Below the pieces are notes generated by a model, which ran no database searches, was not told where the DNA came from, and was given only the letters and a program-made list of their open reading frames with translations. Source: a virus (lineage: Duplodnaviria > Heunggongvirae > Uroviricota > Caudoviricetes). From it: a stretch of DNA of 5,326 nt. The translations under genes were made by a program, and so were the position numbers. This document shows positions 1-5,216 of the stretch, piece after piece. The stretch lies in IMG/VR virus record IMGVR_UViG_2713896785_000005; one strand, 5' to 3'. The stretch's first letter is position 1. Each line of letters begins with the position of its first letter.

Positions 1-462
1 GACATTCTCGACCAGTTTCTGGATGAAAAGGAAGGTAACCACACCACGGCATACCGTGATGGCGCGGGTATCTGGACCATCTGTCGCGGTGCCATTCTGG
101 TGGATGGTAAACCTGTCGTCCCGGGCATGAAGTTGTCGAAGGAGAAATGCGACCAGGTTAACGCCATCGAACGTGATAAGGCGCTGGCATGGGTGGAGAA
201 AAACATCAAAGTGCCATTGACCGAACCCCAGAAAGCGGGGATCGCGTCATTCTGTCCGTACAACATTGGTCCCGGTAAGTGTTTCCCGTCNACGTTTTAC
301 AGACGAATTAATGCNGGTGATCGNANNGGNGCNTGNGAGGCGATTCGCTGGTGGATTAAGGACGGTGGCAGAGACTGCCGTATTCGTTCAAACAACTGCT
401 ACGGTCAGGTATCCCGTCGTGACCAGGAGAGCGCGCTGGCGTGCTGGGGTATCGACAGATAA
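1..462 (+). CDS. R: Phage endolysin (T4-lysozyme-like, GH24-type), 5'-truncated by the window edge
   Basis: Frame 1 is open from base 1 to TAA 460-462. Translation DILDQFLDEKEGNHTTAYRDGAGIWTICRG... shows the E-x8-D-x5-T catalytic triad spacing of lysozyme-type endolysins and ends ...CWGIDR. From memory it closely matches the endolysin of E. coli lambdoid/Stx-type prophages. Ambiguous bases at 291-336 give X residues. The N-terminus (about 30 aa, likely a signal-anchor) is outside the window. Confidence 0.9.
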   Translation, partial: DILDQFLDEKEGNHTTAYRDGAGIWTICRGAILVDGKPVVPGMKLSKEKCDQVNAIERDKALAWVEKNIKVPLTEPQKAGIASFCPYNIGPGKCFPXTFYRRINXGDXXXXXEAIRWWIKDGGRDCRIRSNNCYGQVSRRDQESALACWGIDR

Positions 463-2340: not shown

Positions 2341-2706
2341 ATGGCTGTGCTTCGTACGTTACCGGGCAGAATCAAAACTCTGAATACCCGGCGGGTGAAT
2401 GTCCTGAAGGGTGAACAGCGTCGGGTCAGTGGCAGTGCCCGGGTTTCCCTCAAGCGTCGTATCTGGCTGAGGGATGCCGGGCAGTGCTGTCTCTGTGGTC
2501 GTGTGGTTGACCTCTGTGACAGTGAACTCGATCACCGAATTGCACTTCAGTTCGGTGGTGGTAATGAGGAGACGAATCTCTGGACGCTCTGTACCGAATG
2601 CCATCGACAAAAGTCTGCTCGTGAAGCGGCGGGTGGTATGCCGGACCCGACGCTGCCGGAGGTGTCCGGAGGTAGTGGCAGAGCGGACGACATCATCGGA
2701 CTGTAA
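2341..2706 (+). CDS. HNH endonuclease (phage terminase-associated HNH)
   Basis: ATG 2341 with AGGA 2331-2334. The translation contains CCLCG-x-VVDLCDSELDHRIALQFGGGNEETNLWTLCTECHRQKS: paired Cys (zinc-finger-like), the His in DH, an Asn (NL) and CH, i.e. an HNH motif. Position directly upstream of the cos-like region and terminase matches HK97-type packaging modules. Stop TAA 2704-2706. N-terminal extent uncertain. Confidence 0.85.
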   Translation: MAVLRTLPGRIKTLNTRRVNVLKGEQRRVSGSARVSLKRRIWLRDAGQCCLCGRVVDLCDSELDHRIALQFGGGNEETNLWTLCTECHRQKSAREAAGGMPDPTLPEVSGGSGRADDIIGL

Positions 2707-2796
2707 CCCGACCGGGGGGGTATCATTCGGCGTAAAAAACGATCGCTCCGGACACCGCCCCCCCTCTCACGCAGAGAAAAAATTCCCGTTTCAGGG

Positions 2797-2924
2797 CAGT
2801 TAACATGTTAACTGGCTGTCCGGGCATTTTTGCGGTTTTTATCTTTATTATTCAGTTTGTTGTGCGGAAAAAATGTTAACTGGCTTTTTCAGCAAATGTT
2901 AACCAGGCAGCAGTTAACATTTGC
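2797..2924. promoter_or_regulatory. Cluster of GTTAAC-core palindromes and repeats upstream of terminase; candidate terminase-binding (cosB-like) or operator region
   Basis: Perfect 18-bp palindrome CAGTTAACATGTTAACTG at 2797-2814; 13-bp direct repeat ATGTTAACTGGCT at 2805-2817 and 2873-2885; inverted repeat GCAAATGTTAAC (2892-2903) / GTTAACATTTGC (2913-2924) with a 9-nt spacer. Five GTTAAC cores within about 125 bp. Confidence 0.4.
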
Positions 2925-2994
2925 GGCATGAGACGCCGGGAAAAATGGGCTGAACCATACCCGGCTGAGTGCGTTCTGGACCCGGGAGGAGGCT

Positions 2995-3558
2995 GTGCTG
3001 ACAACGCAAAAACGAAAATTTGCGCTGGCGCTCATGTCCGGGAAAAACAAAACAGCGTCAGCCATTGCCGCTGGTTATTCGGCGAAGACCGCCAGGGTTA
3101 AAGGCTCGCAGCTGGCAAAAGATCCGGAGGTGCTTGCGTTTATAGCCCGTAAACAATGCGAGACGGTGGAGGTGGATGAGGTTCCTGTTTACCGGCAGAA
3201 AAAATCAGAGCAGGAGGATAAACCCCGTCGCCGTGAGGCGGCTGCAATACCACAGCCGGACGAAAACAATCCGGAGATGCCACCGTCCGCGGTGATGTCT
3301 CCTGGTATTGAATATATGGAGGATGGTCTTCCCGATCCGGTGAAAGCGATGGGGCGTCTTCTGGTGGAGAACATTAATACCGACCCCAGGCTGGCGCTGG
3401 ATGCGGCTTATAAGCTGGCGCAGTTCACGCACCATAAAAAAGGGGATGCCGGTAAAAAATCGGCAAAAGGTGACGCGGCGAAAAAAGCGGCTAACCGTTT
3501 TGCGGTGCCACCACCACCCCGCCTGGTGGTGAATAATGATAATGAGGGCAACGGATGA
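2995..3558 (+). CDS. Terminase small subunit (TerS), HTH-containing
   Basis: GTG 2995 preceded by GGGAGGAGG (2984-2992). N-terminus LTTQKRKFALALMSGKNKTASAIAAGYSAKTARVKGSQLAKDPEVLAFI fits the small-terminase N-terminal HTH pattern (AGYS-x-KTA). Stop TGA 3556-3558 overlaps the TerL ATG (ATGA). Lys/Ala-rich low-complexity C-terminal tail. Confidence 0.8.
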   Translation: MLTTQKRKFALALMSGKNKTASAIAAGYSAKTARVKGSQLAKDPEVLAFIARKQCETVEVDEVPVYRQKKSEQEDKPRRREAAAIPQPDENNPEMPPSAVMSPGIEYMEDGLPDPVKAMGRLLVENINTDPRLALDAAYKLAQFTHHKKGDAGKKSAKGDAAKKAANRFAVPPPPRLVVNNDNEGNG

Positions 3559-5216
3559 TACCTGTGTGGAGCACGGCCTGCCCGGACTGGGCAGAGCGCC
3601 TGAAAAAGGGGCTGTCGATTATTCCGGCTCCGATTTATCCGGACCAGGCTGCACATGCACTGGCGATTTTTAAACAACTGCGAATTGTGGATGCACCGGG
3701 TAGCCCGACATTCGGGGAGTCCTGTGCACCGTGGGTGTTTGACCTGGTGGCGGCCCTGTTTGGCTCCTACGATGCGCAGACCGGTGTTCGCCATATCAAG
3801 GAAGTGTTTATCCTTATCCCCAAGAAAAACAGTAAGTCCACGCTGGCTGCGGGGATCATGATGACGGCGCTGTTACTGAACTGGCGGCAGGCGGCGGGCT
3901 ACACCATTCTGGCCCCGACCGTGGAGGTGGCGGCTAACGCCTTCAACCCTGCCAGGGATATGGTACGACGGGACGATGATCTGGATGACCTCTGTCAGGT
4001 GCAGACACATATCCGGACCATCACCCATCGGGTGACGGACACCACCCTGAAGGTGGTGGCAGCCGATCCGAATACGGTGTCCGGTATCAAGTCCGTGGGG
4101 ACACTGATTGATGAACTGTGGCTGTTTGGCAAGCAGTACAAGGCGGAAGACATGCTACGTGAAGCCATCGGCGGGCTTGCCTCCCGTCCGGAAGGGTTTG
4201 TGGTGTATACGACCACCCAGTCGAATGAACCGCCCGCCGGGGTGTTCAGACAGAAACTGCAGTATGCCCGGGATGTCCGTGACGGCAAAATTCATGATCC
4301 GCACTTTCTGCCGGTGATTTTTGAGCATCCTCCTGAAATGGTGGAAAGCGGGGCTCACCTGCTGATGGAAAACCTCGCCATGGTTAACCCGAATCTCGGT
4401 TATTCGGTGGATGAGGCTTTTCTGTACCGGGAGTACCGTAAAGCCCGGGAGGCTGGTGAGGAAGCATTTCGTGGCTTCATGTCAAAACATGCCAATGTGG
4501 AAATTGGTCTTGCCCTGCGTTCTGACCGCTGGGCGGGTGCGGATTTCTGGGAGCAGCAGGGCAGGCGCGTCAGCCTGGACGATATCCTGCAGCGCGCTGA
4601 TGTGGTGACGGTGGGGATTGACGGCGGGGGCCTGGATGATCTGCTGGGAATGTACGTGATTGGCCGTGACAGGGAAACCCGCGAATGGCTGGGCTGGGGC
4701 CATGCCTGGGCGCATGAAACCGCGGTGGTCAGACGGAAGAGTGAGGCATCCCGTTTTCAGGATTTTGTGGCCTGTGGAGACATGACGATTGTCCGTCGGG
4801 TCGGGGATGACACGGCGGAAGTGGCGGAGTATGTGCGTCGTATTCATGAGGCTGAGTTACTGGAGCATATCGGTATTGACCCGTCAGGTGTGGGGCAGAT
4901 TCTGGATTCACTGGCGGAAGCCGGGATCCCCGACGGAATTGTTGTGGGGATAAGCCAGGGCTGGAAGCTGGGCGGGGCCATAAAAACCACCGAGCGCAAA
5001 CTGGCTGAGGGAGTACTGGTGCATGGTGGTCAGCCACTGATGGCCTGGTGCGTTGGCAATGCCCGGGTGGAGCCTAAAGGTAACGCCATTCTTATCACCA
5101 AACAGGCCAGCGGACGGGGAAAAATTGACCCGCTGATGGCGCTCTTCAATGCGGTGTCCCTGATGTCCCTGAATCCGGAACCGAAAAAGAAAGCGTATGA
5201 GGTTTTTTTCATATAA
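3555..5216 (+). CDS. Terminase large subunit (TerL), ATPase plus nuclease domains
   Basis: 553-aa ORF. N-terminal region has a Walker-A-like PKKNSKST motif; C-terminal region has VVTVGIDGGGLDDLLGMYVIGRD typical of the terminase nuclease domain. Start overlaps the TerS stop. Stop TAA 5214-5216. Confidence 0.92.
   Translation: MIPVWSTACPDWAERLKKGLSIIPAPIYPDQAAHALAIFKQLRIVDAPGSPTFGESCAPWVFDLVAALFGSYDAQTGVRHIKEVFILIPKKNSKSTLAAGIMMTALLLNWRQAAGYTILAPTVEVAANAFNPARDMVRRDDDLDDLCQVQTHIRTITHRVTDTTLKVVAADPNTVSGIKSVGTLIDELWLFGKQYKAEDMLREAIGGLASRPEGFVVYTTTQSNEPPAGVFRQKLQYARDVRDGKIHDPHFLPVIFEHPPEMVESGAHLLMENLAMVNPNLGYSVDEAFLYREYRKAREAGEEAFRGFMSKHANVEIGLALRSDRWAGADFWEQQGRRVSLDDILQRADVVTVGIDGGGLDDLLGMYVIGRDRETREWLGWGHAWAHETAVVRRKSEASRFQDFVACGDMTIVRRVGDDTAEVAEYVRRIHEAELLEHIGIDPSGVGQILDSLAEAGIPDGIVVGISQGWKLGGAIKTTERKLAEGVLVHGGQPLMAWCVGNARVEPKGNAILITKQASGRGKIDPLMALFNAVSLMSLNPEPKKKAYEVFFI

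Follow-up and report, generated by a model that had tools for sequence, protein, structure and literature searches.

What does a 288-bp interval crowded with GTTAAC palindromes do between the gene for an HNH endonuclease and that for the small terminase subunit (TerS) of a tailed phage, and which protein, if any, reads its repeats? The interval occupies positions 2707–2994 of the stretch analysed here (the window), 5,326 nucleotides from virus record IMGVR_UViG_2713896785_000005. The original prediction, made from the letters alone, saw in it a cos region of lambda-type architecture upstream of TerS, with a G7/C7 dyad as nicking site and repeats bound by the small subunit, or else operators for a nearby ribbon-helix-helix (RHH) protein. 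The window is part of a Pankowvirus-type lambdoid prophage that converts its host to Shiga toxin (Stx) production: segment 2300–3600 matches 94 phage records at 90–99.9% identity, nearly all of them Stx1a-, Stx2a- or Stx2c-converting phages (e.g., BP-4795, 2851, 1717, YYZ-2008), and one matching record puts the group in the genus Pankowvirus. Of 5426 complete E. coli genomes, 1250 contain the interval itself, with as many as seven copies in one genome and 2953 in total, and no annotated feature lies under it in any of the eight E. coli genome matches listed. It is probably the cos of this Stx prophage, packaged in the manner of HK97 and composed of a cleavage core followed by a cosB-like array of TerS sites that expanded from an ancestral pair at the terS start codon.

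That a cut site exists here, and where it lies, is known from published work on a near-identical phage, Lys8385Vzw (MT225100; Zhang et al. 2021), which is identical to the window over 2739–2950, comprising the cut site and the whole array, and whose TerS is 99.5% identical. PhageTerm analysis of this phage gives 3' cohesive ends of sequence CGCCCCCCCT (PMC7946995). Its record ends in ...GATCGCTCCGGACACCGCCCCCCCT (terminal ...GGACACCGCCCCCCCT), the last base being window position 2765, and starts with CTCACGCAGAGAAAAAATTCCCGTTTCAGGGCAGTTAACATGTTAACTGG... (first bases CTCACGCAGAG...) at window position 2766, so that the junction lies between 2765 and 2766 and the cohesive end spans 2756–2765, inside the tract designated C7. 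The 10-nt length and 3' polarity of the overhang, neither of which is derivable from sequence, are those of the PhageTerm result as given in the accessible text of the report, and the record ends agree with them; that text gives the cohesive-end sequence only, and is silent on the G-run, the conserved core and the GTTAAC array. Virion termini, mapped in Lys8385Vzw and not in the window prophage, thus fall within the interval that had been proposed as cos, which sits where such a site would be sought, between the end of the late/lysis region and terS-terL. The ends are of the HK97 style, a 10-nt 3' overhang with an HNH gene beside cos, and not of the lambda style. Among 63 distinct upstream sequences of close relatives CGCGCCCCCT is the commonest cohesive end, CGCCCCCCCT and CGCCCCCCGT being in the minority, and in other genera it is again mostly CGCGCCCCC.

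Surrounding the cut is a block of the form G-run ... GGACAC-CGC(G/C)CCCCCT-CTCACGCA(C/G)AG-AAAAAATT-CCC, whose nucleotide conservation across genera far exceeds that of the flanking genes. This core is conserved at the nucleotide level in 19 enterobacterial genomes of other genera and in Salmonella phage FSL SP-016, and a regular-expression check recovers it from 91 of 98 further distinct viral loci; its right flank (2766–2790) is nearly invariant across genera and in a Burkholderia phage. A G5–G9 run stands at the same distance from the cut site in the 19 genomes, in SP-016 and in the satellite elements described below, and is present at a fixed distance in 97 of the 98 further loci. Its length differs within the family; in the window it is a G7 with TATCA behind it, 45 nt ahead of the overhang's end, and separated from GGACAC by a 29-nt spacer. 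On these comparisons we take the G-run for an upstream element of the cleavage core in its own right, positioned like lambda cosQ.

All the coordinates given for the tracts and repeats were confirmed in the sequence, including the G7 (2714–2720) and the C7 (2758–2764), 37 nt apart, and the C tract does form part of the cohesive end. Their pairing into a hairpin or dyad that signals cutting was rejected: most relatives have a broken C tract (CGCGCCCCCT or CGCCCCCCGT) and the G-run, about 45 nt upstream, is variable in length, and since C7 is conserved neither in the family nor in other genera it offers no conserved partner for G7. A second candidate, a 14-nt inverted repeat (2658–2671 and 2746–2759, GGAGGTGTCCGGAG and CTCCGGACACCGCC, 93% complementary), also occurs in Lys8385Vzw, with one arm in the 3' coding end of the HNH gene and the other abutting the cohesive end. 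It was set aside as a cos element, no matching left arm being seen in SP-016, whose HNH 3' end differs. Joining the record ends of Burkholderia phage vB_PR2a (loci L172 and L173 in our numbering) gives ...CGGGGGTG...GACCGCACGTTCC-CTCACGCGCAGAAAATTTCCCC...GTTAATGGCTTTAAC, in which the cos core and an inverted repeat at the terS start are recognisable, in a beta-proteobacterial phage whose TerS is 35% identical to that of the window.

Downstream of the core the interval is non-coding, as the TerS N-terminus aligns with its relatives from the GTG at 2995, and here lie the repeats. Five GTTAAC cores begin at 2799, 2807, 2875, 2898 and 2913, the first two within a perfect 18-bp palindrome (2797–2814, CAGTTAACATGTTAACTG). 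A direct repeat, ATGTTAACTGGCT, occupies 2805–2817 and 2873–2885, and 12-nt inverted arms follow at 2892–2903 (GCAAATGTTAAC) and 2913–2924 (GTTAACATTTGC). The abundance of GTTAAC is beyond chance, with seven copies in the window against 0.93 expected (none of 200 shuffles reaches seven), five of them within 120 bp (2799–2918). GTTAAC being itself palindromic, the real unit is longer, about 12 bp of the form A(A/C)ATGTTAACTG with an orientation set by its flanks; the 12-mer AAATGTTAACTG (at most two mismatches) is matched five times against 0.40 expected (0/200 shuffles), always inside the interval and in the orientations -, +, +, +, -. The repeats that had been described by their core were thus correctly recognised and are here refined, both in the extent of the unit and in the nature of the first palindrome, discussed below as an ancestral TerS start-codon site. 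An extra copy of GTAAACAT is found at -33 in SP-016 and many relatives, and is degenerate in the window (GTAAAAAAC).

The array has been maintained as a set. In counts that refer to related sequences, 108 of 109 distinct sequences of the window TerS type keep each of the five 8-mers unchanged, and in the window-type family variation is seen at 4 of 54 unit positions but at 50 of the 175 other positions from the cut site to terS (Fisher p=0.0009). Conservation of the GTTAAC repeats across related prophages, proposed at the outset as a check, therefore holds for this TerS type, and more divergent prophages show how the array changes. The five-unit layout recurs at unchanged offsets in loci L084–L086 and L338 (TerS types P0024 and P0019), every core there being GTTTAT or GTTTAC, and cores of this kind are found again in L335 (P0033). 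Locus L087 (P0034) retains GTTAAC, the flanks of units 1 to 3 having changed jointly from TGGC to CACC, and has one extra core, its last unit being at +158. In such variant arrays all five units change together, and their positions (+34, +40, +108, about +132 and about +149, numbered from the cut) are fixed. Viral-contig searches with P0024 and P0034 as queries returned only window-type loci.

What changes with the units is the DNA-binding part of TerS. The protein matches PF03592 (35.8 bits, cut-off 26.1) over residues 2–57 only, and the AlphaFold monomer, well defined for residues 1–50 (pLDDT 92–96) and of low confidence past residue 55, has helices at 4–14, 19–25, 30–41 and 44–55. A Foldseek comparison with the DNA-binding domain (DBD) of SF6 G1P (4zc3) gives TM 0.84 and rmsd 1.6 Å at an E-value of only 0.02; the best fold matches, 4zc3 and 2cmp, have TM 0.81–0.84, rmsd 1.6–2.5 Å and 30% identity, the small terminases of PaP3 and NV1 are among the other top structural matches, and a sequence search against PDB chains gives E about 1e-3. 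The N-terminus is accordingly predicted to be an SF6-like helix-turn-helix (HTH) domain with its recognition helix at residues 30–41, which would place residues 32 and 35 inside that helix. TerS proteins with A25/T32/V35 (window, P0014, P0034) accompany GTTAAC units, and those with E25/S32/C35 (P0024, P0019, P0033) accompany GTTTA(T/C). P0033 has the 25/32/35 residues of P0024 in a protein whose non-HTH part is closest to the GTTAAC-type P0034 (70% identity), and it is found with GTTTA units; it is thus the HTH, and not the remainder of TerS, that the units follow. In the comparison across genera we used the upstream half-site, on which no coding constraint acts: it reads GTTTA(C/T) in 15 of 16 S32 loci of the cross-genus set and in all 94 distinct K31/S32 viral loci, and GTTAA(C/T) in all four other-genus T32 loci (L007, L021–L023). 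The cut-site core stays constant while the unit core changes with the TerS HTH. The proposal that the repeats are small-subunit sites is thus supported by these comparisons, in which the units behave as TerS-specific recognition units, and the array is most likely a cosB-like set of candidate TerS sites rather than of RHH operators.

The strongest argument for TerS as the reader comes from elements that are not phages. TerS homologues P0059 and P0053, 46–49% identical to the window protein, lie in small integrative elements (L174, E. coli GCA_012987925.1, contig AATOBA010000003.1, 56090–74578; L088–L090; L336–L337), P0059 alone representing a cluster of 243 member sequences. One such element carries an integrase, small open reading frames (ORFs) and a replication protein (AAA_25 or D5_N/DUF5906), together with the cos block, terS and a capsid-like gene of 307 aa, and a reduced one has AlpA and terS only; no TerL, HNH or RHH gene was called in these elements. 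Both types keep the G-run and the GGACACCGC...TCTCA core, but their units differ, being AAAAGTTACAC (GTTACAC type); L088 has two of them, and in L336 about six, an inverted pair among them, extend over about 190 bp. The non-HTH part of satellite TerS is nearer to Stx-phage TerS (48–59% identity) than that of the enterobacterial P0072 type is (39%), whereas the HTH differs. With neither TerL nor HNH encoded, the private units appear to travel with TerS alone. Retention of cosQ and cosN with a changed cosB is the strategy by which phage-inducible chromosomal islands (PICIs) redirect packaging (PMC6739421), and these satellites may likewise parasitise Stx-converting phages by a TerS swap. The more specific proposal, of a base-specific cosB with a residue-to-base code (residues 25, 32 and 35 reading bases 4 and 6, GTTAAC versus GTTTAT) on an HK97-type core, together with satellite piracy of Stx phages through TerS swap (AAAAGTTACAC), is tentative, possible though not quite probable.

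Several observations weigh against this picture. The termini come from Lys8385Vzw and from PhageTerm alone; loci L012, L344 and L412, with N31/S32 and GTTAAT, break a simple residue-32 rule; and the covariation amounts to few independent events, perhaps three to five, in related sequences. HNH is 80% identical between the GTTAAC and GTTTAT lineages (TerL 97%), and because HNH also diverges, the phage data alone would allow it to be the reader. Moreover, the DBD of SF6 G1P, the closest solved homologue, binds pac DNA weakly and with little sequence preference, the repeats being immaterial in vitro (PMC4737164), and HK97 TerS recognises DNA otherwise, by threading it through its ring, making base-specific reading by the window TerS plausible but unproven. 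The best-surviving alternative is that some protein besides TerS (HNH, TerL or a host architectural protein) reads the units, or that what matters is mainly the shape or bendability of DNA around the TerS ring and bases are not read at all. The HNH divergence fits the first version, and the second draws on the SF6 DBD, which binds non-specifically and is thought to select a DNA conformation, and on the spacer, whose T runs occupy the same offsets in three diverged arrays. The periodicity of A/T tracts is significant in L084 and L338 (2 and 10 of 1000 shuffles, respectively, reach the observed value), but not in the window (66/1000) or L087 (251/1000), with 131/1000 for L336; given these mixed results an intrinsic bend is not claimed. 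Against both versions, satellites that encode TerS but neither HNH nor TerL have units of their own, TerL is nearly the same protein in the two lineages, and no integration host factor (IHF) consensus with up to one mismatch occurs in 2707–2994. Nor would shape by itself lead one to expect that all units change jointly from A to T, in step with substitutions in the recognition helix. We regard this alternative as unlikely, and sequence-specific recognition by TerS as the better account of the array.

How the array arose bears on whether its later units matter at all. In all 20 other-genus relatives terS starts ATG-TTA-AC about 40 nt past the cut, with GT(A/T)AAC just before it, forming a near-palindrome, GT(A/T)AAC-ATGTTAAC, at +34 to +47 that overlaps the TerS start codon; a single near-palindrome at the terS start is also present in 97 of the 98 further distinct viral loci. 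Codons 2 and 3 (TTA ACA) are almost invariant in these relatives, whereas codons 5, 7, 8 and 9 vary synonymously, which points to a constraint on the DNA itself. The window palindrome at 2797–2814 is the positional homologue of this site. Homology with the relatives ends at about 2812 and restarts at the present terS start (GTG-CTG-ACA, 2995), and the roughly 180 bp between, specific to the Stx-phage lineage, carry units 3, 4 and 5. We infer that the ancestral form was a single near-palindromic pair over the terS start codon, and that an addition of about 180 bp displaced the start to 2995. A small hydrophobic ORF of 24 codons (2805–2879, MLTGCPGIFAVFIFIIQFVVRKKC) runs from the ancestral start codon into unit 3. 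It was considered as a gene and rejected: its counterpart in L087 also has 24 codons, but the L084 version stops after 14, and it is probably a by-product of the T-rich spacer.

Such an origin invites a second alternative, that the extra units are inert relics of repeated duplication or illegitimate recombination of the terS 5' end (ATGTTAAC, encoding Met-Leu-Thr) and only the core matters. The homology of the first palindrome to the ancestral terS start, the ATG-TTA-AC with which units begin, and the sufficiency of a single site for most relatives are all in keeping with it. Relics, however, would be expected to decay independently, and the units do the opposite: they vary less than their surroundings and persist as an intact set of five 8-mers; L084, L338 and L335 carry one alternative core in every unit, matched to an altered HTH; and satellite L336 has built an array of a third unit type independently. 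Inert relics are accordingly improbable, and more so than a different reader. Least probable is that the units are operators for a dimeric regulator (the DUF3950/RHH protein, or another phage or host regulator of the late/head operon), an idea to which their palindromic or inverted arrangement, common among operators, a DUF3950 gene nearby upstream, and a single weak promoter-like minus-strand match made from the units themselves lend some colour, but from which the evidence now turns, as the whole HNH gene separates the units from the DUF3950 start so that they are not at its promoter, L084 to L086 have the full array with no DUF3950 gene called, satellites without an RHH gene have private units beside a TerS of their own, the core of the unit goes with residues of the TerS HTH, the relatives' site lies on the terS start codon within the conserved cos core, and the interval holds no convincing promoter, no terminator-like site and no Rfam match to an RNA family.

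A working model for the preferred reading, a cleavage core followed by a TerS array, may be drawn as two modules. The first, at about 2712–2790, would be the cleavage core, comprising the G-run, the 29-nt spacer, GGACAC, CGCCCCCCCT and CTCACGCAGAG-A6TT-CCC, on which TerL together with the HNH protein would make the 10-nt 3' cohesive ends. The G-run, whose side would be met first at the end of a packaging run, could have a cosQ-like role in termination or positioning. The second (2797–2924) would be the set of five units of about 12 bp, A(A/C)ATGTTAACTG, in which units 1 and 2 stand head to head, a T-rich spacer leads to unit 3, and units 4 and 5 form an inverted pair with a gap between them. 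HTH domains of a TerS ring would read these units sequence-specifically, adjacent subunits pairing on units 1/2 and on units 4/5 and the T-rich spacer letting the DNA bend or wrap. TerS so bound would anchor TerL and HNH on the core, where staggered cuts would start packaging. Positions of the elements and neighbouring genes are collected in Table 1.

Table 1. Elements of the cos interval and adjoining genes, in window coordinates; offsets (+) are counted from the cut.
Feature	Position	Strand	Remarks
Phage lysozyme gene	100–462		
DUF3950 (RHH) gene	2072–2299	minus	about 500 bp upstream of the units
HNH endonuclease gene	2341–2706	+	Pfam HNH PF01844, 29.6 bits vs cut-off 21.4; HK97 gp74-like position
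G-run	2714–2720	.	conserved upstream cos element, cosQ-like in position; putative function
GGACAC, left flank of cut site	2750–2755	.	0 variants among 63 distinct family sequences; kept across genera and in satellites
Cohesive-end sequence CGCCCCCCCT	2756–2765	+	10-nt 3' overhang; top-strand cut between 2765 and 2766, bottom-strand cut presumably between 2755 and 2756
Right flank CTCACGCAGAG-AAAAAATT-CCCG	2766–2790	.	A6TT at +12 to +19, then C run
Units 1 and 2, palindrome CAGTTAAC-AT-GTTAACTG	2797–2814	.	homologous in position to the terS-start site of relatives
T-tract-rich spacer	2815–2870	.	T runs at +62, +71, +79; possibly bendable
Unit 3, AAATGTTAACTG	2871–2882	+	offset +108, the same in the three array variants
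Units 4 and 5, inverted pair GCAAATGTTAAC-N9-GTTAACATTTGC	2892–2924	.	about +131 and +148 in window and L084
TerS gene (Terminase_2)	2995–3558	+	Pfam PF03592
TerL gene	3555–5216	+	Pfam TerL_ATPase, TerL_nuclease; distant homologue of HK97 gp2

The gene order of the window is phage lysozyme, small lysis-region and Rz-like ORFs, DUF3950, HNH, the 288-bp interval, TerS and TerL, and the succession HNH, cos, TerS, TerL is the same in relatives; the Pfam match of the HNH protein stops 50 nt ahead of the cohesive end. The DUF3950 gene runs opposite to the late operon, with a very AT-rich segment (1930–2070) after it. It is called in L081 and L082 and not in L084–L086, and being called in some loci only it looks like an optional, moron-like insert beside cos. 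A different rearrangement is seen in the PPompW prophages H93–H99 (LC567818.1; L171, 2440–2520), where ISEc20, an insertion sequence of the IS110 family, abuts a G-run shortened to CGGGGG. These prophages are without the lysis cassette and HNH gene between the Q/tRNA region and cos, and keep cos, TerS and TerL; judging from this gene content, they have probably lost HNH-assisted cutting. The window itself contains two N runs plus scattered N (1271–1342, 1675–1724, 291–336), and the same 22-mer, GGTATTGTCGCCGTATTCCTGC, flanks the second run on both sides, which looks like an assembly or masking artefact.

This cos element governs the packaging of a major group of Shiga-toxin-converting phages. 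Knowledge of its layout could serve to correct prophage maps and virion ends, to predict which prophages and satellites are co-packaged or cross-mobilised, and to design cos plasmids or blocks to packaging. For the study of packaging it provides, in E. coli, a tractable case of a small terminase of HTH type that seems to read repeated units, as against the sequence-independent binding of SF6 and the threading of HK97, and the natural residue-to-base covariation points to the mutants by which this reading can be tested. In the open-access literature we found no description of the cut-site anatomy (a G-run and core shared with HK97-like and Burkholderia phages), of the origin of the array at the terS start codon, of the covariation of units with the TerS helix, or of the satellite variants; a Genome Research 2025 paper and those on SfIV and SfI concern other cos types. 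The array thus appears undescribed.

Among characterised systems, the cos of Lys8385Vzw (MT225100) is the same element as that of the window, and the nearest more distant likeness is to HK97. There too cos, whose cutting is assisted by the HNH protein gp74, has the HNH gene directly before it and those for TerS and TerL directly after it, the overhang is a C-rich 3' extension of 10 nt, and TerL is recognisably related (BLASTP against gp2, 23% identity over about 480 residues, E=2e-11), whereas the HNH proteins have no significant pairwise similarity. HK97 (L340, 39000–39732) has a G9 run then ATCA 42 nt before its right end, comparable to the G7 and TATCA of the window at 45 nt, and packaging systems of the HNH/TerL type may have an upstream cos element, G-run plus ATCA, in common; no role for the G9 run is discussed in the HK97 literature compared. 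Resemblance extends to the TerS site of HK97, an A/T tract and a critical C:G at +15 to +29, to be set beside the A6TT and C run at +12 to +23 here, but since the two TerS proteins are unrelated (E=1.2) this is a resemblance only. HK97 gp1 has no HTH, and DNA is threaded through its ring at a single site of 15 bp, whereas the TerS of the window is of HTH type, with five units from +34 to +157. The window thus shares with HK97 packaging the HNH gene beside cos and the TerL, and not the gp1-type TerS with its single A-tract site.

With lambda the likeness is one of layout. Its cos (cosQ-cosN-cosB) also has an upstream element, a cut site, and repeated TerS sites of mixed orientation with a spacer ahead of terS, gpNu1 binding R3, I1, R2 and R1 with an IHF site between the R sites. 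Of the lambda-type architecture first proposed for the window, then, a GC-rich cut site followed by repeats before terS stands, with candidate TerS sites whose units co-vary with the TerS HTH. What does not stand is identity of parts: the ends are HK97-like, the interval has no IHF consensus, and TerS is not of the gpNu1 family, lambda having a 12-nt 5' overhang, no HNH gene, a winged-HTH TerS and units of unrelated sequence.

The small subunit itself is closer to those of the pac phages SPP1 and SF6, which likewise have a PF03592 TerS with an HTH fold and repeated boxes flanking a cleavage site near the terS start, and for which a ring of HTH domains has been proposed to engage about 100 bp of bendable DNA (PMC4737164). 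These, however, are headful (pac) phages of Bacillus in which the boxes are not needed for DBD binding in vitro, whereas the covariation of the window units with recognition-helix residues argues for base-specific reading. Finally, the satellites resemble the E. coli PICI EcCICFT073 (Fillol-Salom et al. 2019, PMC6739421), which keeps the cosQ and cosN of its helper and has a different cosB. Islands of that type use lambda and phi80 helpers through Rpp, which remodels the helper TerS, whereas the elements described here encode what appears to be a complete TerS homologue with a different HTH.

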